From Alphaproteobacteria bacterium UBA1002 (lineage in GTDB: Bacteria; Pseudomonadota; Alphaproteobacteria; Rickettsiales; UBA998), in assembly GCA_002291845.1 (NCBI GenBank), contig DBAU01000048.1:1-52135 (forward strand): a stretch of DNA of 52,135 bases, written 5' to 3'. Below the pieces are notes generated by a model. The model was not told the origin of the DNA. It made no database searches and saw nothing but the letters and a program-made list of their open reading frames with translations. The translations under genes were made by a program, and so were the position numbers. This document shows, in pieces, positions 4,426 to 44,543 of this stretch (position 1 is its first letter; each line of letters starts with the position of its first letter).

Positions 4426-4447
4426 GCGGCCAATATGAAAGCAAGCG

Positions 4448-4483
4448 TTCCTATTTAGGATAACGATAGGATAGCTTCCTATT
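4448..4483. promoter_or_regulatory. putative operator upstream of the Y-family polymerase (clustered TTCCTATT / TAGGATA repeats)
   Basis: TTCCTATT occurs at 4448-4455 and 4476-4483. TAGGATA occurs at 4457-4463 and 4467-4473. TCCTA and TAGGA are reverse complements. The cluster lies 23-58 bp upstream of the ATG at 4425. Confidence 0.3.
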
Positions 4484-4643
4484 CGCGACCTGTTTCCTCT
4501 GGTGGCACGTAAAGGAAACGCGTCATGGCGAGGAGGCCAATGCCGACGAAGCAATCCACCGCCGGAACGGATGGCCACCATCGCTATGACGATCTTCTAT
4601 GAAATTCGTGACGAAAGACAGACGATGGCTTACTGTGAGAACC

Positions 4644-5554: not shown

Positions 5555-6946
5555 CTAACGCTGCGGTTGCTGGCTTCCAGGGGAAACCCCGACCGCGCCT
5601 GTAGTGGGTGGTGGTGCAGGGGGAGAAGCAAATACGCTTGCCGCAGCAAGTACGCCCAATCGAGTAAGACTGCTTCCTGCCGCAAGTGCTTGGCTTAACA
5701 TGGAATCCTCAACTAGTCGCCCTTGACCCGTCAGGAGCCCGAATACGTTGGTTACAGGGCGTGAAATTTCCGTGACGACAAAGCCGCCCGGTACTTGTTC
5801 AATGGCGCTGTGCGCTGCTTCAGCCCAACGACGCTGACTGGCATGCATAACTACGCCCGCGGGCGAACTCATGAGCGCTGCCTGGCCAGCCTCTGTGGCA
5901 GCCTGAGCATGGGAGCTGCCCGAGGCAAGGCCCGCCGCCACACCCACGCCTCCTGCGATGACCACCCCCACTGCGCCTGAAACGTGGGCTCGGTTACGCC
6001 TTATTAATTCTGCAAGCCTTGCACGTCGTGCTGCCTCCGGATCAACCGGAGGGCGCGCCTGTGTCAGGGCTTGTTCATAGGATTCTGACGCTGTGGTGTA
6101 GCGAGATGCTTGGCCAGAGTTTGGACCAGAAAGCTGGGCAAAATCTCGAATGCTGCCATCTCTGTTCACCGGATGAGCCAATGTCCGTGCATGGTCATTC
6201 AAGTCGTGTAATGCACTTCCCTCGAGTGCCGTGCCACGTACGCGGTCTGTATGCTGGGTTGGGCGGCCCTCGGTATGCTCAGCCCCTGCAACAATACGAC
6301 GAGCGCCTTGTAGCTCGTGATATCTCGCGGCCTGCCGAAGATCGGCTTGGCTGAGATTATCAGGATTGGCGGGTTGGAATGACCGGCTCCGCTCGATGAG
6401 ATTGTCAATGAGTGCGGCAGAGGGTGAATTCGCTCTCCCGTCTGGAAGGCGACTTCTGGTTTCTTCCAGCGCACGGATTAAATCGCCACGGCGTTCGACA
6501 AAATCTTGTCCGCTTACAGGGCGCGATTGAGGGTTCTCAGGATGCGCGACACTGTCCCGCTGTATCCGCAAGTCCTCCACTAGCCGTTGCAGGTTTGTGC
6601 TTCTTGTGGCTTCGCGCCCACTACTCTGCATAAAAGTGCGACGCTGATCAGGTGGTAGTTCTCGATGATCTGGCTGGTTGCCCCGACGCCCTTCGCCGAG
6701 CAGAACGCTGGTTGCCTCTGCGATATCAAGCATACGCGCTAAATCGGCAGCTTGCGCAACGGCGCGTCGGTCTATTCGGTCTGGTAAAGCTTGTCCTGCA
6801 GCAGCCTCACGAAGTATTGCTCCTGTTTGTAGATCGTAACGCCCCTGACGAATCAGCTCGTGTCCGCGATAGTAGGTGGCATCATCGGTGTTAAGGACGG
6901 CCCTTCGGTGATTATCAGAAAGAGAGAAACCACCGCGCCCACTCAT
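5555..6946 (-). CDS. hypothetical protein (463 aa): charged, helical or disordered N-terminal region with a Gly/Ala-rich hydrophobic C-terminal region
   Basis: Long ORF with no competing frame. Its ATG overlaps the upstream stop (TAATG at 6944-6948). It has a VSGAVGVVIAGGVGVAAGLASGSS glycine-zipper-like segment. No family recognised. Confidence 0.6.
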   Translation of the reverse strand: MSGRGGFSLSDNHRRAVLNTDDATYYRGHELIRQGRYDLQTGAILREAAAGQALPDRIDRRAVAQAADLARMLDIAEATSVLLGEGRRGNQPDHRELPPDQRRTFMQSSGREATRSTNLQRLVEDLRIQRDSVAHPENPQSRPVSGQDFVERRGDLIRALEETRSRLPDGRANSPSAALIDNLIERSRSFQPANPDNLSQADLRQAARYHELQGARRIVAGAEHTEGRPTQHTDRVRGTALEGSALHDLNDHARTLAHPVNRDGSIRDFAQLSGPNSGQASRYTTASESYEQALTQARPPVDPEAARRARLAELIRRNRAHVSGAVGVVIAGGVGVAAGLASGSSHAQAATEAGQAALMSSPAGVVMHASQRRWAEAAHSAIEQVPGGFVVTEISRPVTNVFGLLTGQGRLVEDSMLSQALAAGSSLTRLGVLAAASVFASPPAPPPTTGAVGVSPGSQQPQR

Positions 6947-17703: not shown

Positions 17704-18828
17704 ATGAGTCGCTGGATATCGTTTGATTCTGATGCAAAGCGTCCGGTCGTACGGCTGGAAGATGCCTGGGTAGGGCCGTCCCTCTCGGCAATCCAGCGCG
17801 CTCTGCAAGACGTGCCCGCCCTACCGTCGAGGGTTGCGCTGGATGCAACGGCGCTTGGACGCCTCGATACAGCCGCTGCCTGGATTCTGGTCCACTGGCT
17901 GCGCCAACGTCAAAACGAGGGGACGCAGTTTGAGATCATCGGTCTGAATGAAGACCACGCCAAAGTGCTGAGCATGATGGAATCGCTGCTATGCCCTGCG
18001 GCGGCGCTTCCTGCTCCTCCACCGGCGGGCTGGTCAGCCCCGTTTATAGCGCTGGGTCGTGAATTTCTGTTCTGGCGAAAGGATATGGTCGACCTGCTGG
18101 CATTTTTTGGTCACCTCGCCATAGTCGGCTGGCGCGTCCTATGCGAGCCCTCGCGTCTGAGGGGGCGAAGCATCGTCTATCATCTGCACCATGTAGGGCT
18201 GAAGGCGATGCCCATTATTGCACTGCTGGCATTTCTTATTTCACTGGTGCTGGGATATCAGGGTGTGGCGCAACTCAGTAAATTTAATGCGCAGGCTTTT
18301 ACCATTGATGCCGTGGCGGTCTCTATTTTGCGTGAGATGGGGGTCCTTCTGACCTCCATCATGGTCGCCGGACGATCCGGTAGCGCCTTTACTGCTCAGA
18401 TTGGGGTGATGAAGCTCAATCAGGAAGTGGACGCCATGCGGACGCTCGGCCTTGATCCCTACGAAGTGCTGGTCCTGCCGCGGGTACTGGCTATTCTCAT
18501 TGCGCTCCCGGTACTAACATTCCTAGCTGATATGGTGGGGTTGTTTGGCGCCATAACGGTCGGGGTTACCATGCTGGATATGAGCCTTACCCAGTGCATT
18601 TACCGGCTGGAAGCCACGATAAAGCTGAATACATTCGTAGTCGGTATGGTAAAAGCCCCTGTTTTTGCCTTACTGATCGGACTGGTGGGCTGTCTGCGCG
18701 GTCTACAGGTTAAAAACGCTGCAGATGAGGTAGGGCGTCAAACCACGCTGGCCGTGGTGCAATCAATCTTTCTTATCATCATGGCCGATGCCATGTTCTC
18801 CATCCTTTTTACGCTTTTGAAGGTCTGA
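17704..18828 (+). CDS. MlaE-family ABC permease with a fused N-terminal STAS (MlaB-like) domain
   Basis: The N-terminal ~95 aa (VALDATALGRLDTAAAWILVHWL..FEIIGLNEDHAKVL) look STAS-like. They are followed by the MlaE/YrbE permease core (REMGVLLTSIMVAGRSGSAFTAQIGVMKLNQEVDAM). Confidence 0.85.
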   Translation: MSRWISFDSDAKRPVVRLEDAWVGPSLSAIQRALQDVPALPSRVALDATALGRLDTAAAWILVHWLRQRQNEGTQFEIIGLNEDHAKVLSMMESLLCPAAALPAPPPAGWSAPFIALGREFLFWRKDMVDLLAFFGHLAIVGWRVLCEPSRLRGRSIVYHLHHVGLKAMPIIALLAFLISLVLGYQGVAQLSKFNAQAFTIDAVAVSILREMGVLLTSIMVAGRSGSAFTAQIGVMKLNQEVDAMRTLGLDPYEVLVLPRVLAILIALPVLTFLADMVGLFGAITVGVTMLDMSLTQCIYRLEATIKLNTFVVGMVKAPVFALLIGLVGCLRGLQVKNAADEVGRQTTLAVVQSIFLIIMADAMFSILFTLLKV

Positions 18829-18831
18829 GGC

Positions 18832-19599
18832 ATGTCGCGTACCCCGGTCATTTCGGTTCGTGGATTGGTGAACCGCTTCGGCACACAGGTGGTCCATGAC
18901 GGCCTTGATTTTGATCTCTACCCGGGAGAAATCATCGGTGTGATCGGTGGTTCCGGTTCCGGAAAGACGGTGCTTCTGCGCTCCATCATCGGGCTGCAAT
19001 GTCCGGCGGCGGGCAAAATTCTTGTCGATGGACGGGATCTGTTGCAGCTTTCTGCGGAGGAAGTGCTCGAGGTGCAGCAGCTATGGGGGGTGATGTTTCA
19101 AGGCGGCGCGTTATTTTCCTCACTTACGGTGCAGGAAAATGTCGAGGTGGCGATGCAGGAATCCAAGCGCCTGCCACTCGATATGATTCCCGAACTGGCG
19201 CGCATGAAAATCGCGATGGCGGGCCTGCCCCCCGAGGCACGTGATAAACTGCCTGCAGAGCTGTCCGGCGGTATGATCAAGCGCGCGGCGCTTGCGCGTG
19301 CCCTGGCACTCGATCCACGCGTGCTGTTTCTCGATGAGCCAACTGCCGGACTCGATCCGGTGCTGGCTGCAGCGTTTGACCAGCTGATCCGCGATCTGGC
19401 ACAAAGTCTCGATATTGCTGTGATGATGATTACACATGACCTTGATAGTTTATTCTCGATCTGTGACCGGGTAGCGGTGTTAGTGGATAAGAAAATCAAG
19501 GTCGATACGATTGAACAGCTGCAACGTGATTCGCATCCGTGGATTCAGTCTTACTTCGGTGGACCGCGCGCGCAGCAAGCTCAAGTGAGGCATAGCTGA
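18832..19599 (+). CDS. MlaF-like ABC transporter ATP-binding protein
   Basis: Intact Walker A GGSGSGKT, signature LSGGMIKR, Walker B LFLDEPTAGLD, H-loop ITHD. Confidence 0.9.
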   Translation: MSRTPVISVRGLVNRFGTQVVHDGLDFDLYPGEIIGVIGGSGSGKTVLLRSIIGLQCPAAGKILVDGRDLLQLSAEEVLEVQQLWGVMFQGGALFSSLTVQENVEVAMQESKRLPLDMIPELARMKIAMAGLPPEARDKLPAELSGGMIKRAALARALALDPRVLFLDEPTAGLDPVLAAAFDQLIRDLAQSLDIAVMMITHDLDSLFSICDRVAVLVDKKIKVDTIEQLQRDSHPWIQSYFGGPRAQQAQVRHS

Positions 19600-20384
19600 T
19601 GGAAACGGAATCACATTATTTCAAAGTCGGGGTGTTTTTGACCCTTGGCATTGTCGGGTTGGTCGCTTTCCTGATGTGGATGGGCGCCACTGGCGATGAC
19701 CGTGACTACAAAACCTATGCCATCTATTTCCTTGGTGATATCAGCGGGCTGAAACCGGGCGCAGCGGTTAAGTTTAAAGGGCTCGATGTGGGGGCTGTAC
19801 AGTCACTGCGTTTTGATGAAGAGGATCCGAATTATATCCGGGTGCTGGTGCAGGTAGATGAAGCCGCACCAATCACCCAGCACACGGTGGCCACAGTCCG
19901 TTTCCAGGATGTGATTGGCACATCGGCCATTGCACTGCAGAATATTGTAGACATGCCGGAGGGCATGGTCGCACGCGAAGATAAAAATTATCCGGTGATT
20001 CCTTCGCGCCCGTCAGATCTGGAAAAGGTGATCGCCAGCCTGCCCGAGGCGATGGAGACGGTACGCAAGCTGGGTGAACAGGGTAGCAAGTTGCTTAGCG
20101 ATGAAAACCTTGCGGCTCTGGCCGGCATTCTAGTGTCGCTCGACGGATCTCTGAAAACCTTTGATACTACTCTGCAATCGGTTGATCGTGCGGCACAGAA
20201 AGGCGAAACCCTGCTGGATGGTCACGTGGCGCATGATCTCCGTGATACCCTGATGGAGGGACGTGCCGCGCTACGTGAAATTCGTCTGCTGGCAAAGTCG
20301 CTGCGTGATGATCCCTCGCAGGTGATTCGTCAGCCCGCCTACAAGGGCTATACCCCGGCGGAAGGAGCAGAGAATGCGCGTTAA
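19599..20384 (+). CDS. MlaD/MCE-domain substrate-binding protein
   Basis: N-terminal TM anchor followed by an MCE-like fold (GLKPGAAVKFKGLDVGAVQSL). The ATG overlaps the mlaF stop (TGATG). Confidence 0.8.
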   Translation: METESHYFKVGVFLTLGIVGLVAFLMWMGATGDDRDYKTYAIYFLGDISGLKPGAAVKFKGLDVGAVQSLRFDEEDPNYIRVLVQVDEAAPITQHTVATVRFQDVIGTSAIALQNIVDMPEGMVAREDKNYPVIPSRPSDLEKVIASLPEAMETVRKLGEQGSKLLSDENLAALAGILVSLDGSLKTFDTTLQSVDRAAQKGETLLDGHVAHDLRDTLMEGRAALREIRLLAKSLRDDPSQVIRQPAYKGYTPAEGAENAR

Positions 20385-20982
20385 TCGTTTCAGCCCCCTT
20401 TTCATAGCGATTCTTATGCTTTGCGGCTGTAACTTTTCGCTGGAGCGAGAGGGTGGTGAGCAATACCTGATGGATGTGCCCTCTGTCACAGCGGCTCCGC
20501 GGGATAAGCCGGCACGAGGGACGCTGACCGTCTACCTCCCCACAGTGAATGCGGCGCTTGATACACGCCGGGTGGCCCTGCAGCGTCCGGATGCGGCGTT
20601 TGACTACTATGCGGATGCGCGCTGGGCTGATTTCCTGCCTTTATTAGTAAGAGATGCCATCACCCAGACCCTGCAGCATCGCCGCCTGACGGAACGGACA
20701 CAGAGTGACGATAATTTAGCCGTCGGACCTTACCGCCTGATGTTAACGGTGGAGCAGTTTCAGGCGGTCTATACTGATTCGGCTGCTCCCCCGGTGGTTT
20801 ATGTGCATTTACAGGCCGACCTTCTGGATAGTCGTCGCCCGCGAAGCCCGCATCATTTTGATATTCAAACGCAAGCGCCGGCAACCCATGATGAACGCCG
20901 CGCCATTCTCGCGGCATTTCATTCCGCCTTCGAAATAGCGCAGCGCGACCTGATGGAACGGCTGAGCCGGGTAATTCAATAA
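20374..20982 (+). CDS. ABC-transport auxiliary lipoprotein (DUF330-like)
   Basis: Lipobox LMLCGC, and the usual position downstream of an MCE gene. It overlaps the previous gene by 11 nt. Confidence 0.65.
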   Translation: MRVNRFSPLFIAILMLCGCNFSLEREGGEQYLMDVPSVTAAPRDKPARGTLTVYLPTVNAALDTRRVALQRPDAAFDYYADARWADFLPLLVRDAITQTLQHRRLTERTQSDDNLAVGPYRLMLTVEQFQAVYTDSAAPPVVYVHLQADLLDSRRPRSPHHFDIQTQAPATHDERRAILAAFHSAFEIAQRDLMERLSRVIQ

Positions 20983-33458: not shown

Positions 33459-34724
33459 ATGTCTAGTCCCTCAACCACGGCTGTTATTGGCACCGGCATT
33501 TCCGGGATGGGCGCGTCCTACTTGCTGAAGGATGCGACCCAGCTGACCATTTATGAGCAGGGTAATTACATCGGCGGCCACACCCGCACGCGCGAAGTGA
33601 ATTATGAGGGCACGCGCATTCCGGTGGATACTGGCTTCATCGTGTTTAATTACCGTAACTACCCGCACCTCACCGCGCTGTTTCAGCAGCTGGACGTGCC
33701 GGTAGAAAAAAGCGACATGTCCTTTGCGATTTCTGTGCAAGATGGCGTGTTCGAGTGGGGCGCGCAGACACTGAACGCCGTGTTCGGGCAGCGTCGCAAC
33801 CTGTTTTCGCCGCGTTTCTGGGGCATCATCCGCGATGTGAAGCGCTTCTTCCGTGAAGCCCCCGCCTTGCTGGAGCAGAATCTCAGCCTCTCGCTCGGCG
33901 AGCTGCTGGAGCAGATGAAGCTGGGCGAAGGCTTCCGCCGTGACTTCCTGCTTCCCATGGGTGGCGCGATCTGGAGCTGCCCGGTGGAAACCATGCTCAG
34001 CTTCCCGGCACAGACCTTCCTGCGCTTCTTCCATAATCACGGGCTGCTCAGCTTCAATGACCAGCCGCAATGGTACACCGTGAGCGGTGGTGCGCGGGAA
34101 TACGTCACTCGCCTGACCGCACCGTTTGCTGAGCGCATCCGCCTTAATTGCGGCGTCACGGCTGTGCGGCGTACCGAAAGCGGGGTGGAGGTGACGGACG
34201 TCACCGGGCGTACCGAGGCGTATGACCAGGTGGTATTTGCCTGCCATGGCGATCAGGCGCTGCGCCTGCTACAGGACGCCACGCCTAAGGAGCGCGAGAT
34301 TCTCTCCGCGTTTGAATACCAGAAAAACCGCGCCTATCTGCACCGCGACGTGCGCCAGATGCCGAGGCGCCGCGCCTGCTGGGCAAGCTGGGTCTATCTC
34401 TCCGATGGCAAGGCGCGTCCTGAGGCGCTGGCCGTGACTTACTGGATGAACAAGCTGCAGAATATCGATGCGCGCTATCCGCTCTTTGTGACGCTTAACC
34501 CGCTGACACCGATTGCGCCGGAGCTGATTTTTGATGAAACGGAGTTCGAGCATCCGGTCTTCTCCGCCGCCGCCATTGCCGCGCAGTCGCGCATCGGCGA
34601 AATTCAGGGCACGGACCGTGCCTGGTTCTGCGGCGCGTGGCAGCGTTATGGATTCCATGAAGACGGCTTGAATAGCGCCGTGGAAATGGCCGCCCGCATG
34701 GGAATTACCCCGTCATGGCGCTAA
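33459..34724 (+). CDS. NAD(P)/FAD-dependent oxidoreductase (amine-oxidase/desaturase-like)
   Basis: AVIGTGISGMGASYLL dinucleotide-binding motif at the N-terminus. It is the first gene of the conserved cfa-like cluster. Confidence 0.8.
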   Translation: MSSPSTTAVIGTGISGMGASYLLKDATQLTIYEQGNYIGGHTRTREVNYEGTRIPVDTGFIVFNYRNYPHLTALFQQLDVPVEKSDMSFAISVQDGVFEWGAQTLNAVFGQRRNLFSPRFWGIIRDVKRFFREAPALLEQNLSLSLGELLEQMKLGEGFRRDFLLPMGGAIWSCPVETMLSFPAQTFLRFFHNHGLLSFNDQPQWYTVSGGAREYVTRLTAPFAERIRLNCGVTAVRRTESGVEVTDVTGRTEAYDQVVFACHGDQALRLLQDATPKEREILSAFEYQKNRAYLHRDVRQMPRRRACWASWVYLSDGKARPEALAVTYWMNKLQNIDARYPLFVTLNPLTPIAPELIFDETEFEHPVFSAAAIAAQSRIGEIQGTDRAWFCGAWQRYGFHEDGLNSAVEMAARMGITPSWR

Positions 34725-35482
34725 GCAATGGCCTGCTGGTTTCCGATGTGGTGCATGTGCGGCATGTGCCAAAGCGCCATGCGTTTCGCTATACGGTTTA
34801 TTACCTGTGCTTTCCCCTCTCGCGCATGGCGGAGCTGGAAGCGGCACGCCCGCTTAGTGTCAACCGAACCGGGCTATTTTCCTTTTATGAAAAAGACCAT
34901 GGGCTAGGGCAGGCCGCGCCCGCTGAGGCATGGATTCGCCGCCGCATGGATGAATGGGGGCTGACCGCCGCCGATGGCGAGGTGGTATTGCTCACCATGC
35001 CACGCGTGATGGGCTACGTCTTCAACCCGGTCAGTTTTTGGTTCTGCCTGGATAAAGCAGGCCAGCTACGTGCGGTGTATGCCGAGGTAAACAATACGTT
35101 CGGTGAGCAGCACGGCTATTGGTGTTTTCATGATGATCAGCGTCCTATCACCCGCGATGATGTGCTCACCACGCGCAAGCAGTTTCATGTCTCTCCCTTT
35201 TTTGAGGTCACAGGCGAGTATCGCTTCCGCTTTGCCTATGGCGAGGAAAAGCTTGGTGTATGGATCGATCATGATGCACATGGACAGCATGTGCTTTCCA
35301 CCGCGCTGACCGGCAAGCGTCAGCCGCTGACTACGGCCAATTTACTTTATTGCTTTGCACGCTATCCGCTGGTGACATTGAAAGTCATTATGCTGATTCA
35401 TTACCATGCCCTGCGGCTGGTAATGAAAGGTATCCGCTATCGTACTAAACCCAATCCCCCCCTTCAGGAGGTTTCCCGATGA
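34715..35482 (+). CDS. DUF1365-family protein
   Basis: VVHVRHVPKRHAFRYTVYYLCFPL...NRTGLFSFYEKDHG matches my memory of the DUF1365 pattern. It overlaps both neighbours. Confidence 0.72.
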   Translation: MALSNGLLVSDVVHVRHVPKRHAFRYTVYYLCFPLSRMAELEAARPLSVNRTGLFSFYEKDHGLGQAAPAEAWIRRRMDEWGLTAADGEVVLLTMPRVMGYVFNPVSFWFCLDKAGQLRAVYAEVNNTFGEQHGYWCFHDDQRPITRDDVLTTRKQFHVSPFFEVTGEYRFRFAYGEEKLGVWIDHDAHGQHVLSTALTGKRQPLTTANLLYCFARYPLVTLKVIMLIHYHALRLVMKGIRYRTKPNPPLQEVSR

Positions 35483-36651
35483 AGAACTTGCTTGTCTCCC
35501 GTGTATCCGGCCCGTTTCTTGATGCGTTTGAGCGCGCCGAATGCGGCAGCCTGCACCTCACCGCGCCTGGTGGCATCTCACGCCATTTTCAGGGCAGCCG
35601 CCCCGGCCCGCAGGCCACATTTCATATTCATGAATGGGATACTTTAATGATGCTGGTTTCACGCGGGGATATTGGTCTGGGTGAGGCTTATATCGACGGC
35701 CTGTGGGATACCGAAGACCTCGACGCGTTGTTTCAGTATTTCCTGCTCAACCTCGACCAGCTGGAAGGCTATGCACATGGCACCTGGTGGAACCGCATGC
35801 TGTTCAACTTTGTGAATCAGGTGATCCGCCGTAACTCACCGCAGGGCAGCAAGCATAACATCCGCGCCCATTACGATGTAGGCAACGAGTTCTACTCGCT
35901 GTGGCTGGATGAGAGCATGACCTATTCCAGTGCCCTGTTTCCAAGCAATGACAATGCCACGCTGGAACAGGCACAGGAGCGCAAATATGGTCGCATCCTG
36001 CAACGCATCGGTGGCAGTGCTGGTAACGTGTTGGAGGTCGGCTGCGGCTGGGGCGGCTTTGCCGAAGCGGCTGCCCGTGAAGGGCGGCAGGTCACCGGCA
36101 TTACGGTCTCGCCTGCGCAGCATGCGTTTGCTACACAGCGGCTGGGCAATAAAGCGGACATTCGCTTACAGGATTACCGCCATACCGAGGGCCGCTTTGA
36201 TGCAATCGTCTCGATCGAAATGTTTGAGGCGGTTGGCGAACGCTACTGGCCGACCTATTTTTCCACGCTGAAGCAACGGCTCAGCGAAGGAGGGAGTGCC
36301 GTGATCCAGACCATTACCGTCGATGATGCGATTTTCCCCGGCTATCGTACACGTAGCGATTTCATCCGCCATTACACCTTCCCCGGTGGTATGCTGCCCT
36401 CCGTGCAGCGTTTTCGTGAAGAGGCCCAGAAGGTGGGTTTTGTCTGCCGTGATGTGTACCGTTTTGGGCAGGATTACGCCCGTACGCTGCGCGAATGGCT
36501 GGTGCGCTTTGATGCCGCTGAACCCCAGATCCGCGCGCTGGGGTATGATACTCCATTCCTGCGTACCTGGCGTTTCTACCTGGCCATGTGCGCGGCGGCG
36601 TTCCATGTTGGCCGTACCGATGTCGTGCAAGTGGAGCTGGGCCATGCGTAG
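35479..36651 (+). CDS. cyclopropane-fatty-acyl-phospholipid synthase-like SAM-dependent methyltransferase
   Basis: NIRAHYDVGNEFYSLWLDESMTYSSALF, LEVGCGWGGFA (SAM motif I), SIEMFEAVGERYW, FIRHYTFPGGMLPS. Confidence 0.85.
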   Translation: MKNLLVSRVSGPFLDAFERAECGSLHLTAPGGISRHFQGSRPGPQATFHIHEWDTLMMLVSRGDIGLGEAYIDGLWDTEDLDALFQYFLLNLDQLEGYAHGTWWNRMLFNFVNQVIRRNSPQGSKHNIRAHYDVGNEFYSLWLDESMTYSSALFPSNDNATLEQAQERKYGRILQRIGGSAGNVLEVGCGWGGFAEAAAREGRQVTGITVSPAQHAFATQRLGNKADIRLQDYRHTEGRFDAIVSIEMFEAVGERYWPTYFSTLKQRLSEGGSAVIQTITVDDAIFPGYRTRSDFIRHYTFPGGMLPSVQRFREEAQKVGFVCRDVYRFGQDYARTLREWLVRFDAAEPQIRALGYDTPFLRTWRFYLAMCAAAFHVGRTDVVQVELGHA

Positions 36652-37171
36652 CCGCCTTTTAATGCTCGCTGCGGCGTGGTTACTGGCGACTCCGGCTTTT
36701 GCTGAGCCACTCCCGGAAATTAAGGATACGCTGAAGGCCGAGGCGCCTTATGGAAAAGGTGATCTCCGCTGGCTGTGGATGAAGGCCTATGACGCCTCCT
36801 TATGGACGGATACGAAACCCTGGTCGATGAGCGCGCCTTTCGCGCTCAGCCTGACCTATGACATGGAGTTCGCGTCCGAAGAGCTCGCGGATCGCTCGAT
36901 TGATGAAATGCGGCGAGTGTCAAGCCTGAGCAAGACGCAGCTCGAAACCCTGCGCTCAATCTTGCGTCGGGTGTTTCCAAACGTAAAGTCAGGGGATCGT
37001 ATTACCGCGCTCTACCTTCCGGGAAAGTCTGTGCGTTTTTTCTATAATGGTGCGCCCAAGGGCAAGGTGACGGAGCCGTATTTCCCCGAGGCTTTTTTTG
37101 GTATCTGGCTCTCGGAGAAAACCTCTGAGCCTGGGCTGCGCCGTGCCCTGCTGGCGCTGGAGCGCCCGTGA
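36644..37171 (+). CDS. chalcone-isomerase-like family protein (secreted)
   Basis: Signal peptide MRSRLLMLAAAWLLATPAFA, then LRWLWMKAYDASLW. The true start is ATG 36644, overlapping the cfa-like stop. The track ORF from 36323 is an out-of-context extension. Confidence 0.6.
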   Translation: MRSRLLMLAAAWLLATPAFAEPLPEIKDTLKAEAPYGKGDLRWLWMKAYDASLWTDTKPWSMSAPFALSLTYDMEFASEELADRSIDEMRRVSSLSKTQLETLRSILRRVFPNVKSGDRITALYLPGKSVRFFYNGAPKGKVTEPYFPEAFFGIWLSEKTSEPGLRRALLALERP

Positions 37172-38442
37172 CACTGCTTCCCCAGCGAGATCTGGTATAT
37201 TATGGCTTGTTCGGTTTGCCGTTGGCCTTTGCTGGTCTTCCGCTGTATGTCCATCTTCCGCATTACTATAATGCCGTGCACGGTATGGAGCTGGCGCTGA
37301 TCGGTGGGCTGCTCTTGCTGGCGCGGCTGGTGGATACGGTGCAGGATCCGTTGATCGGTTGGGCGGGGGATCGCTGGCCACAGCATCGCCGCCGTGCGAT
37401 GATCATTAGCCTGCCTGTGATGGCGGTCGCGTTTGCTGCTCTCTTTCATCCTCCTGCCTTTGCGAAGGGGCATCTCGCCGTGTGGTTGGTTGCTCTGCTG
37501 GTAGTGGTGTATACCGCGTTTAGCGTGCTGAGTATTTTCTACAATGCCTTGGGTGTGCGGTTGGCGGGTGGTGATTATCATCAAAATACACGTGTAACCG
37601 CGGCGCGCGAAGGCATGGTCCTTGTGGGGGTGGTGCTTGCTGCCGCACTGCCGCACGCATTCGTGCAACGTTTTGGCATGTCCGAAGGGTTTATGTATGT
37701 CAGCGGGATATTTGCCCTGCTCCTCGCCGGATTCAGCTTCCCGCTGCTTGCTCGCGGGGAATGGTTCCATCAGCGCGATACCGGCGTCCCACCGGCGGCA
37801 TTGGCGATAGGGGCGTCCCTTGCCGCCTGCTGGCAGGCACGTGACCTGCGCTGGCTCTTTGGCTTGTTCTTCGTCAATGCATTGCCGGTGGCGTTCACCT
37901 CAACACTGTTTCTGTTTTTTGTGGAAGACCGTCTTGACGCAGAATCGGAAGCGGGCTGGCTACTCATGCTCTATTTCCTTACGGCGGCGGCATCGATTCC
38001 TGTTTGGAGCGCACTCAGCCGCCATTACGGCAAGCGCCGACCGCTCATGGTCGCCTTACTGCTGGCGGTGACGTCGTTCATCTGGGCCTACGGGTTGCAG
38101 GCGGGAGAAGTGACCTCTTTTGCTATCATCTGCGCACTCTCCGGAATCGCGGTAGGGGGAGATATGGCGCTCCTACCCTCGCTGCTGTCCGATGGGCTGA
38201 AAGAGCGGCCTCAGCTGCATAGTTTTGCCTTCGGACTATGGAATTTCCTTACCAAGCTAACACTTGCCTTAGCCGCGGGTATCGCCTTGCCGCTGCTGGA
38301 GGTGGCGGGCTATCGCCCCGGTGACGCAGCGACATCCACGCAGGCACTGGCGGTGACATACGCCCTGTTACCCTGCGCATTGAAGCTGTTATCCATTCTA
38401 CTGTTATTTCTTATTCCACTCGATGCACGGAGACCCGTATGA
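37168..38442 (+). CDS. MFS-type transporter (GPH/MFS_2-like)
   Basis: About 12 hydrophobic segments. It has a GTG start overlapping the previous stop and a conserved position in cfa-like clusters. Confidence 0.72.
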   Translation: MTLLPQRDLVYYGLFGLPLAFAGLPLYVHLPHYYNAVHGMELALIGGLLLLARLVDTVQDPLIGWAGDRWPQHRRRAMIISLPVMAVAFAALFHPPAFAKGHLAVWLVALLVVVYTAFSVLSIFYNALGVRLAGGDYHQNTRVTAAREGMVLVGVVLAAALPHAFVQRFGMSEGFMYVSGIFALLLAGFSFPLLARGEWFHQRDTGVPPAALAIGASLAACWQARDLRWLFGLFFVNALPVAFTSTLFLFFVEDRLDAESEAGWLLMLYFLTAAASIPVWSALSRHYGKRRPLMVALLLAVTSFIWAYGLQAGEVTSFAIICALSGIAVGGDMALLPSLLSDGLKERPQLHSFAFGLWNFLTKLTLALAAGIALPLLEVAGYRPGDAATSTQALAVTYALLPCALKLLSILLLFLIPLDARRPV

Positions 38443-38969
38443 AGACGATCAAGACCTTTATTGCCAGCCTGATGTTTTTACTCGGCGGCTGCTCTGGCCA
38501 GACGCCGGAGGATTACGCCAATGCCACGCCTAAGCTCGATCTGCGTGAATACCTCAACGGGCGGCTGGAGGCCTGGGGCGTGCTGTTTGACTATACCGGC
38601 AAGGTGGATCGCCAGTTTTATGTGGTGATGGAGGGCAGCTGGAACGGCAATGAGGGCACGCTGAAAGAGTGGTTCACCTATAGCGATGGCCGCAAGGATG
38701 AGCGGGTATGGACCGTGACCTACTCCGACGATCACCATTTCACCGGCACCGCGCATGATGTGATCGGCAAAGCCGAGGGTAAACAGTTCGGCAATGCCGT
38801 GAATATGCAGTACACCCTGCGTGCCAAGCGTGATTCCGGCGATACCATTGATCTCTCGATGGATGACTGGATGTATCTGATTGATGATAAAACACTTATC
38901 AACCGCACCACCATGAAGAAATTTGGCCTGAAGGTCGGCGAGCTGGTCATCGCCTTCCGTAAGGAGTAG
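38439..38969 (+). CDS. DUF3833-family lipoprotein
   Basis: Lipobox LLGGCSG, then LDLREYLNGRLEAWGVLFDYTGKVDRQF..W. Confidence 0.7.
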   Translation: MKTIKTFIASLMFLLGGCSGQTPEDYANATPKLDLREYLNGRLEAWGVLFDYTGKVDRQFYVVMEGSWNGNEGTLKEWFTYSDGRKDERVWTVTYSDDHHFTGTAHDVIGKAEGKQFGNAVNMQYTLRAKRDSGDTIDLSMDDWMYLIDDKTLINRTTMKKFGLKVGELVIAFRKE

Positions 38970-38971
38970 CC

Positions 38972-39715
38972 ATGTTCCACGCACAAACGATCTGGCTGAT
39001 TGGTGCCAGTGAGGGCATCGGGGCGGCGCTGGCAGAACGACTCGCCCGCGAGGCGGCGACGCTGGTACTTAGTGCCCGACAGGCAGAGAAGCTGGAAGCG
39101 CTGAAGATGCGGCTGGCCGGTCAGGGGCATCGGATCTTACCCATGGATGTCACGGATGAGCGCAGCGTTGAGGCGGCATGGCAGAGCTTCGGTACAACGC
39201 CACCGGACATGGTAATCTACAATGCCGGAGCGTATGAGCCGCTCAGTGCCAAGCAATTTGATCTGGCGCGCACGGAGCTGATGCTGGATGTTAATTTCCG
39301 CGGAGCTTTGCGAATGCTCGCGCACGTACTGCCAGCCATGCAGGCACGTCGCTCGGGTCATCTAGTGCTGGTAGCCAGTGTGGCGGCCTATCGCGGCCTC
39401 CCCAAAGCCATCGGCTATGGCGCCAGCAAAGCGGCACTTCTGCATCTGGCGGAGAATCTGCGTACCGATCTGGAAGATACCGGCATTTGCGTGCAAGTGG
39501 TCAACCCTGGCTTTGTAAAGACTCGGCTGACCGATAAAAATGACTTCTCGATGCCGTTTCTTATCACCCCTGCGCAGGCCGCGGCGGAGATCGTGCACGG
39601 GCTGCAGCAGGGCGGCTTCGATATTCACTTCCCCAAACGCTTTACCCTGCTTATGAAGTTGCTGCGCATACTGCCGTACCGCGCCTATTTCTGGGTGCTT
39701 CGGCACCTTCTTTAG
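38972..39715 (+). CDS. SDR-family short-chain dehydrogenase/reductase
   Basis: IWLIGASEGIGAALA (TGxxxGxG-like), NAG, and catalytic YGASKAAL. Confidence 0.85.
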   Translation: MFHAQTIWLIGASEGIGAALAERLAREAATLVLSARQAEKLEALKMRLAGQGHRILPMDVTDERSVEAAWQSFGTTPPDMVIYNAGAYEPLSAKQFDLARTELMLDVNFRGALRMLAHVLPAMQARRSGHLVLVASVAAYRGLPKAIGYGASKAALLHLAENLRTDLEDTGICVQVVNPGFVKTRLTDKNDFSMPFLITPAQAAAEIVHGLQQGGFDIHFPKRFTLLMKLLRILPYRAYFWVLRHLL

Positions 39716-39729
39716 AGCAGTGTGGGGAA

Positions 39730-41154
39730 TTAGCTCGCTTCAGCAATCCGTAGCTGTTCCAGATTGACCGTTGCCGCATAGAAATTGGCTAATGACTTAA
39801 ACAATTTCAGCACCGATTCCGCCTGCTTAATACGCGCATTGGCGACGTTATCCTCGCGCAGGTTAACCACAAAGAAATCACTGGCCCCGCTGGTGAAGCG
39901 TTCCTGCTCGGCACGCTGCATGGTGAGTGCGACCTGCACCTCCTGTTCGGCCAGTGCCACATTCTGCTCCGCCGCTTCGATATCGGCGAGGATATTGCGG
40001 ATTTCTGCGCGAATCTGGTCATCGAGCAGGCGCCGCTGGTATTGCAGCTCTTTAAGACGCGCTTTGGCTTGCGCGACGATCCCTTCTCCGGCACGACGCT
40101 GCAGAGGTATTGACACATTCAGCTTGACCATGCCCTCTGTCTCATCACGGGTCGGGCTCCCATCGCCATAGTCTCGTGCCGTTTCCACGCCCACATCCAC
40201 CTTGGGCATGATGCGATTTTCACCCAGCGCCAAGCGATTTTCTTCCTGCTTGATGGTGGCATCCAGTACTCCAAATTCTGGACGCGCTTCGATGGCTTTG
40301 AGAACATCGTTCTCCGCGGCATCTTTCTGTGGCCGCACTAGAACAGGGGCACGTGCTGGCAGCGCGTCGGCGGTTGGAGATACCGGTTCTCCCGCCTCAT
40401 CACGCCAGAAAAGCGACAGTTTATTTGCGGCATTGATAAATGCTCGCTCCGCTTCGTTCAGCTTAGCACGACGTGCAAAAATATATTGTCGATTCTCGGT
40501 GACAAAAATATCGGCAACATCACCCCGTGCGGCGCGCTGTGATAAGGCATCCTGTCGCTCCTCGGCAATGGCAAGCAGGTCACGCCGTACCTGCACCACC
40601 TGCCCGGCGGCGAGCCACTCAGCATAGGCATGCATTGCCTGATGCTGCACAGAGATTTTGGTCAGTAACAGATCCAGCTCAGCGGCATTCAGCTGCAGCT
40701 CATTGTTCATCAGGCTGAAGCGTTCTTCGTCAATGGCGCGATTACGCAGCAGCGAAAACATTGCACCAAGGGAGAACTCTCCTCCATCGTTGGTAAAGAG
40801 TTTGTCCTCATAAATTGGAAAATCACCCTCAGCTACCCGGTAGCCGCCATAGACACGGGTGTTGGTGCCCTCCAGGCGTTTCTCCAGGCGCGTGTCGGTA
40901 ATGCGCCCATTGTAGAATCCAGATGGGCGCGCGTAGCTGTCGTTATTCAACTCCAGATCGAAGATCCCTTGGGACGCTGTAACCGCTCCTTTTTGTGCAT
41001 CAATCGCCGCTTTGGATTCAAGAATTTGCGGATAATGACGCAGTGACGAGCCCAGCACATCCTCTAGCATCAGCGTTGGTGCCGCATGCGCAGGGGCAGC
41101 GAAGGCCAGCCACACGCCTGCGAATAAAAAACGTTTATTTTGTGGCCATGTCAT
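39730..41154 (-). CDS. TolC-family outer-membrane channel protein
   Basis: Signal peptide FLFAGVWLAFAAPAHA, plus two repeated coiled-coil/beta halves typical of OEP/TolC proteins. Confidence 0.85.
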   Translation of the reverse strand: MTWPQNKRFLFAGVWLAFAAPAHAAPTLMLEDVLGSSLRHYPQILESKAAIDAQKGAVTASQGIFDLELNNDSYARPSGFYNGRITDTRLEKRLEGTNTRVYGGYRVAEGDFPIYEDKLFTNDGGEFSLGAMFSLLRNRAIDEERFSLMNNELQLNAAELDLLLTKISVQHQAMHAYAEWLAAGQVVQVRRDLLAIAEERQDALSQRAARGDVADIFVTENRQYIFARRAKLNEAERAFINAANKLSLFWRDEAGEPVSPTADALPARAPVLVRPQKDAAENDVLKAIEARPEFGVLDATIKQEENRLALGENRIMPKVDVGVETARDYGDGSPTRDETEGMVKLNVSIPLQRRAGEGIVAQAKARLKELQYQRRLLDDQIRAEIRNILADIEAAEQNVALAEQEVQVALTMQRAEQERFTSGASDFFVVNLREDNVANARIKQAESVLKLFKSLANFYAATVNLEQLRIAEAS

Positions 41155-42235
41155 CCGTAGCTACCTTGCTCGGTTCGGTCATGGAGCGGTCAAATTCAGG
41201 GGGGAAGTTATTCAGCTGGCGCCACAGCTCGTAACCAAGCGGTACGGTATTGAGCAGCACCCAGCCTTTGGTCTTTGCTCCAAAGCGCAGGAACTCATGG
41301 CTGGAAGAAATAGTTTTGCCTTTGGGGTCAACCAGCGGCCATTGGTCTGGCCAGGGCAGATCATCCGGATCTTCCACAATCAGAATGCGGAAACGCCCAT
41401 TTACTGAGGCGTTTGGCTCCACAATCTTTACCACTCCACCGAACGTGCCAATGGCGGCGGACGGCCAGCCACTGAACTGAATCATGGGCCAGCCCTCAAA
41501 CTGCAAGCGCACTTTGCGGCCCGGAAAGATGAAGGGGATATCCAGCCCATTAATATAGAGCTCCACCGCGCGCTCACTACTGGCGGGCAGGAATTTGGCC
41601 AGCTCATCGCCTTCTTTAATGAAAGTGGCAAGATTACCGGCCAGAATCTGCACGACCGTACCATCCCGCGGGGCGGTGATGAGCTGACGTGCCTGGCGTG
41701 ACAGCTGTACATCAGCTTTGTTTAAGTCCGCGGCAGCTTGTGCTGCTTCGGATTTAAGGGATTTATAGCGGATACGCGCATCCTCAAATTCCTTGCGGGC
41801 ACTGAGGCCACGCTTGAACAGATCTTCCTGACGGTTGAGGTTAATCTCCGCCGTTTCCATGGCGATTTGGGCCGCCTCATATTTCCGGGACACCGCATCC
41901 CGCTCGGCCTGTAGGCGCTCGACCAACCGAGGATCATTATCGATGATCTCCACAATTGGATCGCCTTCTTTAACCTGCGCGCCGTCCTGAACAAACCAAC
42001 GGCTGATGCGTCCACTGACCTGCGCATTCACTGTCTGCAGACGGTTTTCCGGGTTAAAGGCAGTGACCTGTCCGAAGCCCGGCGCTGTCTGCACCCATGG
42101 CGTAAAAATGAGGAAAAGCAGCACAGTCACCATGGAAACGCGCAGCATGGTGGCGAAATTTTTCATCACCCGCGGCACGTAAATGCCCTGCAGTGTGGTC
42201 AGGCGCTCCACATGGTGGGAAGCAAACGGGCTCAT
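41135..42235 (-). CDS. HlyD-family membrane fusion (periplasmic adaptor) protein
   Basis: N-terminal TM, lipoyl-like VSGRISRWFVQDGAQVKEGDPIVEI, a coiled-coil hairpin, and ITAPRDGTVVQI. Confidence 0.85.
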   Translation of the reverse strand: MSPFASHHVERLTTLQGIYVPRVMKNFATMLRVSMVTVLLFLIFTPWVQTAPGFGQVTAFNPENRLQTVNAQVSGRISRWFVQDGAQVKEGDPIVEIIDNDPRLVERLQAERDAVSRKYEAAQIAMETAEINLNRQEDLFKRGLSARKEFEDARIRYKSLKSEAAQAAADLNKADVQLSRQARQLITAPRDGTVVQILAGNLATFIKEGDELAKFLPASSERAVELYINGLDIPFIFPGRKVRLQFEGWPMIQFSGWPSAAIGTFGGVVKIVEPNASVNGRFRILIVEDPDDLPWPDQWPLVDPKGKTISSSHEFLRFGAKTKGWVLLNTVPLGYELWRQLNNFPPEFDRSMTEPSKVATDDMATK

Positions 42236-43944
42236 GCTTCATCCTCCTGACGTTCGGCTGTGACCATCGCTTCAAGGCTGTCATAGAAAATCTGCTCTTC
42301 TGCGCGCAGGACGAGGTACTGATCAAACGTGGCGATATCCTTACGGTTTGTGAAATACAGCAGACTCATCTCCGGAATACTGCGGATATAATCTAGCAAA
42401 CGGCGCCGCAGGGACGGTTGCAGCACATCGTAGAGCTCTGTCATGACCAGTAAGCGTGGCCGCGATAGTAGGGCTACAGCCAGCTTCAGGCGCAATACTT
42501 CCGAAGAGGAAAGCGGGTGGCCGGCTGGATTCATCTCGGTTTCTAAACCCTGTTTGAGATGGCCAATGGACTCTTCCAATCCCACGGCTCGCAATACGGT
42601 TTGAATCTCCGCGCGCGATGCTTGTGGGCAGCCGAATTTCAAATAATTCTCGATGGTTCCCTCAATCATCATGGTGTTATCGAGCACAATGATTTTCTCA
42701 CGCAGCTTGTGGAGATCATAATCAAGCAGATCTTTATCGCCGACCAGCAAACGTCCCTGCACAGGCTCTTGATGCCCCTGCAGCAGGTCAATCAGCAACT
42801 TCTCCAGCGTATGCGAACGTGTGGAGGCTAGAATTTTCATGCCAGCCGGGATAGTGAAGTTCAGCATGAAGCGACGACCACGGAAGGTCTGCTCTACCTG
42901 ATCTACCACAAGGTCAAAAGGCTGATTGTCTGGCGCCAAGCGGCCATTGGTATCCTCAAGAGGTATTTGATAGAAATGGGATAATTTCTCCATCGAGGCA
43001 TAGAGCTCATAAAGTAGCGTGAGCTGGCTGGCAAACTTCGAGATGCCGAATAAAATGGCGGAAAGGATCAGCTCCGCCGCGACCAGCTGGCCCAGGGTCA
43101 GCTGATTGCTGATGACCAGCCATCCGCCAATGCCCAGCAAGGCCGCACTAGCTAGTGCGTAGAGCAGGGTAAAGCCAATATACTGGCTGAGTGTATCCCC
43201 AAATAATTTCTTCCGGGCCTTGATGTAATCACCCGCGAGATCGTTGGTGCGATCCAGCGCGAACAGAATGTTGCGCTCAGATTTGAAAAAGTGATTGGCC
43301 CGCGCGAGCTCCTCAAGCCAGCGTGCCGTCGCATACTTGGCTTTTGATACTTTTAACGCATCTTTCAGTGCCCGACTGGCCCATATCTTCCAGATCAAAT
43401 AAATGACCATTAGAAGCAGCAGGTTGAACATTAAGAACCAGGGATGGTAGAACGATACGATGGTGATGCCCACCACGGTTTGCAGCGCCAGTGAAAACGC
43501 GCCGGTTACCAGAAGCGGTACGTTCTTCTGAACGATCATAATCTCAAAATAACGGTTGATAAGCTCGGCGCGATTGATGCTTTCAAAATGGGCATAGCGG
43601 GCATAGATGTTACGTAGAGCAATGTCTCCGGCAATGCGTGCGTAAAAGCGCCGCTCAAATAACTCCATGGTGTAGTATTGAAGAATATTCAGCGTACCTG
43701 AAAACAGCAGCATGATAAGCAACATGACCGCCAGAACCACCACAGGGTTGAGCAGCGCCATGTTGGCGACGGTGCTCATCAGCGTTTGTACTGATACAGG
43801 AATGGCAAGCGTTAGCAGGCTAACGCCGAGGCCATAGACGATGGCCATGGTGTAAAAACTTCGCTCTGGCTGTAGTATGAGCTTAAAAAGCGAAAAAAAG
43901 CTAGGTGGCTCTTCAGTTAGCGGACGAGCGGTCACGGCGGGCAT
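42232..43944 (-). CDS. ABC exporter-like half-transporter (T1SS-type TMD) with a degenerate nucleotide-binding domain
   Basis: The 6-TM ABC_membrane-type N-terminal half is followed by an NBD-like fold. In it Walker A reads ILASTRSHT, the signature reads LSSSE, Walker B reads LLVMTE, and there is no H-loop His. Confidence 0.8.
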   Translation of the reverse strand: MPAVTARPLTEEPPSFFSLFKLILQPERSFYTMAIVYGLGVSLLTLAIPVSVQTLMSTVANMALLNPVVVLAVMLLIMLLFSGTLNILQYYTMELFERRFYARIAGDIALRNIYARYAHFESINRAELINRYFEIMIVQKNVPLLVTGAFSLALQTVVGITIVSFYHPWFLMFNLLLLMVIYLIWKIWASRALKDALKVSKAKYATARWLEELARANHFFKSERNILFALDRTNDLAGDYIKARKKLFGDTLSQYIGFTLLYALASAALLGIGGWLVISNQLTLGQLVAAELILSAILFGISKFASQLTLLYELYASMEKLSHFYQIPLEDTNGRLAPDNQPFDLVVDQVEQTFRGRRFMLNFTIPAGMKILASTRSHTLEKLLIDLLQGHQEPVQGRLLVGDKDLLDYDLHKLREKIIVLDNTMMIEGTIENYLKFGCPQASRAEIQTVLRAVGLEESIGHLKQGLETEMNPAGHPLSSSEVLRLKLAVALLSRPRLLVMTELYDVLQPSLRRRLLDYIRSIPEMSLLYFTNRKDIATFDQYLVLRAEEQIFYDSLEAMVTAERQEDEA

Positions 43945-44067
43945 GTCTGTTCCATGTCACAAGGTGCCTATGCTTCACGTCAATACGTTATCGTTGAGCA
44001 TAGTGCTATAAAATTCTGCACACACAGTTAGTACACGGGCGTTTTTTTTAAAGAGGGAAGAGAGCAT

Positions 44068-44098
44068 AAAAAAAGGGGCCCGATACCGGACCCCTTTT
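44068..44098 (-). terminator. rho-independent terminator downstream of the phasin gene
   Basis: GGGGCCCG-atac-CGGACCCC (44075-44094, one mismatch), followed on the minus strand by a T7 run (44068-44074). Confidence 0.65.
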
Positions 44099-44117: not shown

Positions 44118-44543
44118 TTATGCGGCTTTAGCGAGCGAAGAAATTTCTTCAACGCTCTCAGCTGCGCGGCGATTGAGCATGTCAAACGCTTCCATGCTGG
44201 ATTTCGTTGCCATTTCAGAAATTTCACGTGCGCCGCTGATGGCGTTCTCATACATCGACTTCGCGTATTCCGTCTGGCGCGCAGTATTGGTTTCCGGCGA
44301 GCTGGAGGTCATGATTTCTTTGGAGGTTTTCAAGAACTGCTCAACCGTATCACGGACCATTTCCGTTTGACGCTTGGTAATAGCTTGCGCGCTTTCCATC
44401 ATCATCTGGTTGGCAGCGGTGAATGCTTCGATGTTGCGACGCTGCATCGAGAACAATTTATTCATATCGAAAGCAGGGGTTTTAAATTCGCTCCAAGCTT
44501 TCCACATGTCATTGTAGTTAGCGGTCGTAGACTTCGGTGCCAT
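44118..44543 (-). CDS. phasin-family (PHA granule-associated) protein
   Basis: The 141-aa helical protein ..FDMNKLFSMQRRNIEAFTAANQMMMESAQAITKRQTEM.. matches the alphaproteobacterial phasin pattern. Confidence 0.78.
   Translation of the reverse strand: MAPKSTTANYNDMWKAWSEFKTPAFDMNKLFSMQRRNIEAFTAANQMMMESAQAITKRQTEMVRDTVEQFLKTSKEIMTSSSPETNTARQTEYAKSMYENAISGAREISEMATKSSMEAFDMLNRRAAESVEEISSLAKAA

Follow-up and report, generated by a model that had tools for sequence, protein, structure and literature searches.

The window, i.e. the whole stretch of 52,135 nt analysed here (contig DBAU01000048.1 of Alphaproteobacteria bacterium UBA1002, Rickettsiales; assembly GCA_002291845.1), harbours on its minus strand three genes for an apparent tripartite export system, the ABC-type inner-membrane component of which seems to be devoid of a functional ATPase. 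Tripartite pumps are classed by their energised inner-membrane component, with ABC proteins being driven by ATP, and RND and MFS proteins by the proton-motive force. If the system described here transports, its ABC-fold component must draw on a source of energy other than ATP. As judged from the open reading frame (ORF) calls and their translation, the genes encode, in the direction of transcription, an ABC-exporter-like protein of 570 aa (42232–43944), a membrane-fusion protein (MFP, periplasmic adaptor) of 366 aa (41135–42235) and an outer-membrane factor (OMF), similar to TolC, of 474 aa (39730–41154); these and all further coordinates within the operon refer to the minus strand. ORF analysis agrees with an earlier note on this DNA in that the three genes overlap, the ABC and adaptor genes by 4 nt (ATGA) and the adaptor and OMF genes by 20 nt. 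The ABC ORF is translationally coupled to the adaptor gene.

Residues 33–300 of the ABC protein matched the Pfam family ABC_membrane (32.4 bits, cut-off 28), and a marginal and partial match to ABC_tran (27 bits, cut-off 25) was obtained for residues 384–501. The top NCBIfam matches (type_I_sec_HlyB, MsbA, bacteriocin_ABC/PCAT and LssB) reached 82–96 bits, eight-fold under the respective cut-offs. An AlphaFold2 model with 87 homologues as input (pLDDT 82.6, pTM 0.78) predicts an elbow helix, six long transmembrane (TM) helices and a C-terminal domain resembling a nucleotide-binding domain (NBD), hereafter pseudo-NBD. The predicted helices (residues 25–62, 65–114, 125–155, 168–215, 223–278 and 286–325) follow the pattern typical of type IV exporters, and the modelled chain begins straight at the elbow helix, with no N-terminal C39 or CLD domain. 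Full-length Foldseek matches comprise TM287/288, the PCAT1 core, HlyB (from the HlyB/D complex), MsbA and TmrAB (E ~1e-22, TM-scores of 0.6–0.68, 16–19 % identity). The membrane half of the protein had been described before as normal, and the ABC_membrane match, the six-helix model and the Foldseek matches all bear this out. According to the model, the fold of an ABC half-transporter appears to be intact, while its catalytic chemistry appears to be gone.

The pseudo-NBD (residues 345–556; 42277–42912) is modelled as an alpha/beta domain with pLDDT >90, which retains the fold of an NBD but none of its catalytic motifs. The motif register was set by a phmmer alignment to PDB sequences (Atm1, P-gp and other ABCB exporters) across residues 151–546, and the motif coordinates were checked by translation. 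The Walker A equivalent TRSHTLEKL (residues 375–383; 42796–42822), aligned to GSSGSGKST of Atm1, has no glycine loop. Its lysine position is occupied by E381 and not, as stated earlier in a register two residues off, by threonine; among the 87 homologues this column reads Q49/E15/I9, and none of them has a glycine-rich P-loop. The Q-loop glutamine is replaced by D422. The signature equivalent LSSSE (residues 478–482; 42499–42513) takes the place of canonical LSGGQ, with L478 and S479 alone being conserved in this region across the homologues, together with G475 and P477. In the Walker B equivalent LLVMTE (residues 498–503; 42436–42453) the aspartate is replaced by T502 (T/N/S/G in the family). 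The motif had been called degenerate, which holds for the aspartate; the glutamate after it is present in the window protein (E503), whereas the column varies within the family (E37/Q24/P17 of 87). The D-loop SALD reads DVLQ, starting with D506, and the H-loop position, aligned to the histidine of Atm1, is N533 (42346–42348; N64/H16 of 87). The degeneration of the ATPase motifs asserted in the earlier note, including LSSSE, DVLQ and the missing H-loop histidine, was hence recovered in the phmmer as well as in the 87-homologue alignment. Residues conserved among the homologues for apparently structural reasons are G397, R415, G475-x-PLS, RLKLA, P496, D506, F531 and R534. On sequence grounds, the window ABC protein appears to be without any usable ATP-binding or ATP-hydrolysis motif.

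This state is shared by a large family. A protein search with the ABC protein gave 1968 matches, the top 120 of which were all approximately full-length (555–604 aa, 42–77 % identity) and in many cases without a precomputed ABC_tran assignment. Exhaustive phmmer searching of 1.84 billion representatives yielded 1250 clusters (50 % identity) at E≤1e-30, and a genome scan turned up relatives in the genomes of at least 566 GTDB species, including Sphingomonadales, Kordiimonas, Alteromonas, Paraglaciecola, Woeseiaceae, Wenzhouxiangellaceae, Nevskia, Hydrocarboniphaga and Myxococcota. The dead-NBD family is distributed among mostly aquatic members of the Alpha- and Gammaproteobacteria and Myxococcota. 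From a total of 268 family proteins fetched, 196 were of mid-length (520–620 aa), and G-x4-GK[STG] was missing from 186 of these. Since the motif degeneracy is common to the whole clade, it is not due to chance; a dead NBD appears to be the rule across this family, and annotation of its members as 'ABC transporter ATP-binding protein' is misleading. Full-text searches of the literature retrieved no account of a tripartite system whose NBD is missing or degenerate throughout.

For comparison of loci, the best 80 genome loci, from 80 different assemblies, were used. The order ABC–adaptor–OMF is kept in 71–75 of them, with the OMF gene following the adaptor gene in 71. Most exceptions are losses at contig ends; two loci with room downstream (L006 and L047) gave no OMF match. 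One member of the dead-NBD family has probably been reported before, namely HlyBD2-OMP2 of Blastomonas fulva T2, which was labelled an ordinary ABC-type pump by similarity, the dead NBD passing unremarked (PMC9505733). The published length of hlyD2 (1053 bp) is identical to that of the adaptor ORF (4159–5211) at the Blastomonas locus L057, and omp2 (1503 bp) would fit the OMF ORF of this locus only if the start were assumed at ~5208 (PMC9505733).

Some relatives lack the NBD entirely. These fusion proteins measure ~660–700 aa; their membrane domain extends to approximately residue 335 and leads straight into the cytoplasmic tail of the adaptor and its TM anchor. A dedicated search produced 20 fusion clusters at 90 % identity (P0228, P0269–P0287), which are 42–52 % identical to the query fusion P0228, and one further fusion from the exhaustive search (P0244) brings the number of fusion proteins to 21. 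They originate from NCBI, JGI, ENA and Logan assemblies and include a case on a 2.3-Mb contig. In all three fusion loci inspected, the OMF gene immediately follows the fusion gene and no NBD gene adjoins. The NBD is dispensable, since natural lineages delete it and fuse the membrane domain to the adaptor. The fusions imply a membrane domain:adaptor ratio of 1:1, which equals the 6:6 ratio of HlyB:HlyD reportedly found in the published 7SGR structure.

A sister clade from Planctomycetota (Tundrisphaera lichenicola, Paludisphaera, Schlesneria, Tautonia, Gemmataceae) and Myxococcales comprises proteins of ~700–790 aa that keep a genuine NBD (ABC_tran 80–88 bits; Walker A in 48 of 67). Its members share with the window system the YHP, GQLVAAE, RRF-R and NRFFD hallmarks and an ABC-MFP-OEP operon at 33–38 % full-length identity, but differ in the real NBD, an extra N-terminal domain, a longer adaptor (~470 aa) and a longer OMF. 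The N-terminal domain of ~200 aa (P0163, P0171, P0211; L087, L088), which is sometimes followed by a His/Gly-rich linker, had no Pfam match and no C39 match, despite the PGAP name 'peptidase domain-containing ABC transporter'.

In a neighbour-joining (NJ) tree of the membrane domain, dead-NBD and fusion proteins form one clade (81 of 82, purity 1.0) apart from the Walker-A-bearing forms, which suggests a single origin of the dead and fusion forms; within this tree the fusions split into at least four groups. The simplest history would comprise one loss of the ATPase chemistry together with the N-terminal domain, long maintenance of this state, and subsequently one or more deletions of the whole pseudo-NBD. 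Two candidates for proteins consisting of the membrane domain only were not used: P0248 ends at a contig edge, and the gene of P0239 has its full length but is interrupted by one in-frame stop in the linker. The metagenomic member L089 (910–2544) carries a single in-frame stop at the linker between membrane domain and pseudo-NBD (GSRLP*EEPAD), the remaining frame being intact; the stop could mean that the gene is split, or it could stem from a nonsense mutation or an error in sequencing.

The membrane domain (residues 25–325; 42970–43872) is the most conserved section of the ABC protein. The hallmark motif Y166-H167-P168 at the turn between TM3 and TM4 (43441–43449), which the helix pattern places on the periplasmic side, is invariant or nearly so across dead-NBD, NBD-less and ATP-competent relatives. 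A second hallmark, G285-QLVAAE-L292 at the predicted periplasmic start of TM6 (43069–43092), includes the carboxylate E291, which falls within the hydrophobic stretch 281–311 and is thus membrane-embedded; glutamate occupies this column in 60 of the 61 dead-NBD forms, in all 21 fusions and in 45 of the 48 long forms with Walker A. An invariant basic cluster (R98/R99/R103/R131/K140/K203) locates to the cytoplasmic extensions of TM2–TM4 and is kept in the NBD-less forms, too. Judging by helix boundaries and hydrophobicity, E291 and the arginine cluster are predicted to face the cavity. The segment N217–K221, corresponding to coupling helix 2, loses conservation or is deleted in the fusions, the other hallmarks of the membrane domain staying invariant. 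Such relaxation would be expected if the segment served only to hold a (pseudo-)NBD.

The nearest relatives, located on freshwater metagenome and metagenome-assembled genome contigs, are 77 % and 73 % identical to the window protein, with full synteny and all three genes intact. Nei-Gojobori comparison with these two contigs gave rough ratios of nonsynonymous to synonymous change (dN/dS) of ~0.10 for the ABC protein (membrane domain, 0.07; NBD-like domain, 0.07–0.10), 0.06–0.07 for the adaptor, 0.05–0.09 for the OMF and 0.06–0.09 for the neighbouring proC. Despite saturated synonymous divergence (dS), nonsynonymous change is clearly suppressed in the operon. Among the 87 homologues, conservation averages 2.87 bits per column in the membrane domain and 2.25 in the NBD-like domain, with the P-loop block (2.1 bits) belonging to the less conserved parts of the latter. 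In the ATP-competent sister clade, which served as a control of similar divergence (median 49 % identity), both domains reach ~3.0–3.8 bits and the Walker A block 3.6.

These values bear on the possibility of a decaying pseudogene or a non-functional remnant of a type I secretion system (T1SS). The loss of all catalytic motifs and one metagenomic relative with an in-frame stop at the linker would be in line with decay, but the intact and coupled 570-codon ORF, dN/dS of ~0.1 or less, the confident AlphaFold2 fold and the retention of length and operon in at least 566 species of Alpha-/Gammaproteobacteria and Myxococcota make it negligibly probable. The earlier note had likewise doubted a fresh pseudogene, and dN/dS of ~0.07–0.10 in both domains, similar to proC, and an intact operon in 71–75 of the 80 loci now argue for the same view. 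The alignment of the NBD, the determination of dN/dS and the survey of motifs in orthologues that it had proposed gave purifying selection, a dead state throughout the clade and no intact Walker A lysine.

On balance, the operon probably encodes a selectively maintained tripartite exporter composed of a type IV membrane domain with a pseudo-NBD, a MacA/AcrA-like adaptor and a TolC-like channel, in which this ABC-like protein would hydrolyse no ATP and which could be proton-driven. The dimer of membrane domains would still form a translocation path, since its hallmark residues do not differ between ATP-competent, dead and NBD-less forms. The source of power would not be ATP hydrolysed by the ABC-like protein; the driving force could be the proton-motive force or the substrate's own gradient. 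Candidates for a proton site are E291, the invariant carboxylate of TM6, and H167, which together with Y166, P168 and G285-Q286 make up a candidate functional site at the periplasmic apex. The basic residues R98/R99/R103/R131/K140/K203 are candidates for binding a substrate that would be anionic and either a small molecule or lipid-like. The pseudo-NBD may dock on the second coupling helix and act there as a cap with a structural or regulatory role. ATP-independent operation had been raised as an option in the earlier note and draws strong support from the natural NBD-less relatives with their fusion of membrane domain and adaptor.

Transport by ABC membrane domains without ATP hydrolysis has precedents. 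The membrane domain of LmrA (LmrA-MD), engineered to lack the NBD, acts as a proton-coupled secondary transporter requiring the TM6 carboxylate E314 (PMC6155054), and transport by MsbA was described as proton-coupled (PMC4979069). LmrA-MD and MsbA-MD are laboratory truncations of ATP-driven pumps, whereas the fusions described here are natural equivalents with an invariant TM6 glutamate, E291 and E314 being likened by helix and residue type alone. SbmA/BacA (SLiPT) possess an ABC-exporter-like membrane domain without NBD and use the proton gradient via conserved carboxylates/glutamates (PMC8442886, PMC13316013). The analogy with them is functional only, as there is no detectable sequence relationship and no SbmA_BacA Pfam match at E≤1. 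Furthermore, SbmA is an importer, has no coupling helices and does not belong to a tripartite system, in contrast to the window protein, which keeps a folded pseudo-NBD as well as coupling helices/intracellular loops. If transporting, the present family would represent a natural test bed for ABC membrane domains as secondary transporters, a role so far shown only for engineered LmrA-MD and MsbA-MD and the distant SbmA.

The case for ATP independence is built from sequence and comparative data, and several observations weigh against a maintained, ATP-independent exporter of this kind. The ATP-competent sister clade conserves E291 and H167 to the same degree, so that the two residues are not an adaptation to the loss of the NBD; their conservation could reflect ancestral ion coupling, a substrate contact or an adaptor contact. 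A basic residue is located one position past the Walker A lysine column (K382; K43/R22 of 87), and G475-x-PLS is invariant in the family; some possibility exists that the pseudo-NBD binds a nucleotide or another ligand in a non-canonical way. Moreover, dS is saturated (pS 0.66–0.78), which renders the dN/dS values rough. Dead-clade-specific residues that would mark a switch to proton coupling were not found, the only systematic differences from the ATP-competent forms being N61/F, N174/D, P143/A, F96/I-L and S164/A.

A more far-reaching proposal is advanced only tentatively: the family might constitute a new energisation class of tripartite pumps, with an ABC type IV membrane domain serving as the basis of a secondary-active, proton-driven exporter, and with a series leading from ATP-competent, ancestor-like forms (Planctomycetota, Myxococcota) via those with a dead pseudo-NBD (Alpha-/Gammaproteobacteria, Myxococcota, including the window) to forms with deleted NBD and fused adaptor. 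If this were true, proton coupling by the invariant TM6 glutamate would go back to the ancestors of this ABC lineage, which would bear on the disputed intrinsic ion coupling of ABC exporters.

The binding of a ligand by the pseudo-NBD would be central to a ligand-gated channel or exporter, in which this domain binds a nucleotide or anionic ligand, dimerises without hydrolysis and gates facilitated diffusion, following the logic of CFTR and SUR. Purifying selection and the conserved face formed by G475-x-PLS, D506, K/R382, R415 and R534 are compatible with such gating, as is coupling helix 2, the conservation of which where the pseudo-NBD is present and relaxation where it is absent suggest that the domain still communicates with the membrane domain. 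The poor conservation of the P-loop region (2.1 bits) and the several lineages that dispense with the domain entirely are at odds with it, and gating of this type is considered quite improbable.

Alternatively, ATP could be hydrolysed in trans, with the dead-NBD protein pairing with a canonical half-transporter or recruiting an orphan NBD, the gene for which would lie elsewhere in the genome. Heterodimeric exporters in which one site is degenerate do exist, TM287/288 and TmrAB rank among the best structural matches, and the conserved G-x-PLS with the RLKLA helix could complete the ATP site of a partner. TM287/288, TmrAB and TAP1/2 tolerate non-canonical NBD motifs; however, they keep Walker A in both chains, retain one competent site and are encoded by adjacent genes, whereas Walker A is missing here and a homodimer of the window protein would have both sites dead. 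No linked second half-transporter or NBD gene was found in the window, the 80 genome loci, the three fusion loci or the loci of the sister clade, although the partners of known heterodimers are encoded by adjacent genes. Likewise, no paralogous partner with the same membrane-domain hallmarks was seen in the best 80 loci from as many assemblies. The fusions, having neither NBD nor conservation of coupling helix 2, would offer an NBD no place to dock. The heterodimer-dependent option of the earlier note has lost support, because no partner gene is linked in any of these loci, and is now quite unlikely. The only carriers of a Walker A motif in the window, an MlaF-like ATPase (~18.9 kb) and EF-Tu, were considered as partners and rejected.

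The adaptor matches HlyD_3 and Biotin_lipoyl_2 in Pfam and RND_mfp in NCBIfam (85.6 bits), and misses the HlyD-type model TIGR01843 (58.8 vs 208.65 bits). Its AlphaFold2 model (pLDDT 80) comprises a TM anchor (residues 22–44), a lipoyl domain, an alpha-hairpin whose helices are each ~35–40 residues long, a beta-barrel and, at the C-terminus, a short helix. Foldseek neighbours are MacA (best), AcrA, ZneB, MexA and EmrA, HlyD being absent from the top 50. The model thereby points to an adaptor of the MacA/AcrA/MexA type rather than the HlyD type. An invariant tail, GYExWRQLNxFPP (adaptor residues 334–346, on the C-terminal helix), is shared by the window adaptor and each of the 20 aligned fusions, and may contact the invariant periplasmic apex of the membrane domain. 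The OMF matches OEP (108.8 bits in two repeats) and starts with a signal peptide, MTWPQNKRFLFAGVWLAFAAPAHA, without a lipobox.

With MacAB-TolC the system shares the tripartite plan and an N-terminally anchored adaptor, MacA being the best structural match of the latter; MacB, however, has the type VII ABC fold, carries a large domain in the periplasm and possesses an NBD that is active. The likeness is relevant to a non-pumping scaffold or vent, in which the inner-membrane protein would only anchor the adaptor hexamer and the channel, substrates leaving the periplasm or outer leaflet passively, or the complex having a structural role in the envelope. Such a role would agree with the lack of an ATPase, with the MacA-like adaptor (MacAB takes periplasmic substrates) and with the peak of conservation at the periplasmic apex (YHP, GQLVAAE), which is matched by the invariant adaptor tail and fits an adaptor-docking surface. 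Yet the cytoplasmic extensions are invariant even in the fusions (ELFERRF-AR, NRYFD-M-VQK, S-AKY), indicating a role that faces the cytoplasm, e.g. in substrate entry or gating. Furthermore, the adaptor already possesses a TM anchor, and a six-TM scaffold maintained at dN/dS of 0.07 seems excessive. A mere scaffold is, on these grounds, rather unlikely.

By lineage, the ABC protein is an offshoot of T1SS/PCAT-like ABC exporters, and the adaptor type is closer to MacA/AcrA efflux. The triad of ABC (type IV), MFP and OMF is common to HlyB-HlyD-TolC and other T1SS (LssB, PrtD) and PCAT1, and HlyB and the PCAT1 core are among the structural matches. In contrast to these systems, that of the window scores far under the family cut-offs (TIGR01846, 95.6 vs 725.55 bits; TIGR03375, 82.2 vs 693; TIGR01842, 64.4 vs 510), has no C39 or CLD domain, bears dead ATPase motifs and a short, non-HlyD adaptor, and has no linked RTX or GG-leader cargo. 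The earlier designation as a type I secretion-like ABC-MFP-TolC operon thus stands for the triad and for the lineage of the ABC protein, but does not extend to the whole machine, the adaptor being MacA/AcrA/MexA-like.

Clustering of ORFs of at least 80 aa across the 80 loci revealed no conserved cargo, the recurrent clusters representing the three operon genes and an OxyR-like LysR regulator. Small ORFs (25–110 aa) within 900 nt of the operon ends in these loci were off-frame artefacts only, and arrays of RTX repeats (GGxGxD) are missing from the window. No linked cargo with RTX or C-terminal signal and no GG-leader peptide was found at the window or in the 80 loci. ORF clustering, the small-ORF scan and the RTX scan of the window are, therefore, in accordance with the earlier statement that no cargo gene is adjacent, and the substrate is probably not a linked secreted protein. 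The OxyR-like LysR regulator adjoins the ABC-MFP-OMF module in 20 of the 80 loci on either strand (e.g., L008 6088–7164 and L018 6556–7509). Its best NCBIfam match is OxyR (211 bits, cut-off 329), and control by redox state or oxidative stress is possible.

Upstream of the operon, a phasin gene (44118–44543) is followed by its strong terminator (44071–44098, minus strand; 12-bp stem and T-run), which is backed by compensatory changes in the syntenic contigs L081 and L082. The intergenic region 5' of the ABC start (43945–44070, minus strand) contains a conserved block with the consensus ATGGCACTGTGCC...CGATACCGTATGCAC, ~40–90 nt 5' of the start codon, which is kept in both contigs. By its position and conservation this region is a putative promoter or operator of the operon. 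A sigma-54 reading of the conserved upstream TGGCAC block was ruled out by the unfitting spacing. Downstream, a convergent SDR gene ends at 39715. With this gene on one side and the terminator on the other, the three genes form a self-contained operon, and as a tripartite set they are complete.

Elsewhere in the window, a 463-aa ORF (5555–6946, minus strand) has no Pfam match at E≤1e-5. An apparent run of ABC genes is located at 17704–20982 (plus strand); its Mla-like nature is a guess from gene sizes, unchecked against family libraries. Within it, a 255-aa ORF (18832–19599) holds the only canonical ABC Walker A of the window (GGSGSGKT at ~18946) and is unrelated to the exporter operon. The SDR gene is the last member of a tightly overlapping cluster (33459–39715, plus strand) that codes for an amine oxidase, an unassigned protein (ORF 34715–35482), a CFA-synthase-like methyltransferase, a Chalcone_3-like protein, an MFS_2 transporter, a DUF3833 protein and the SDR. 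Starting with the CFA-synthase-like gene, the cluster shows synteny with L081 and L082, the close relatives; it looks like a lipid-modification module.

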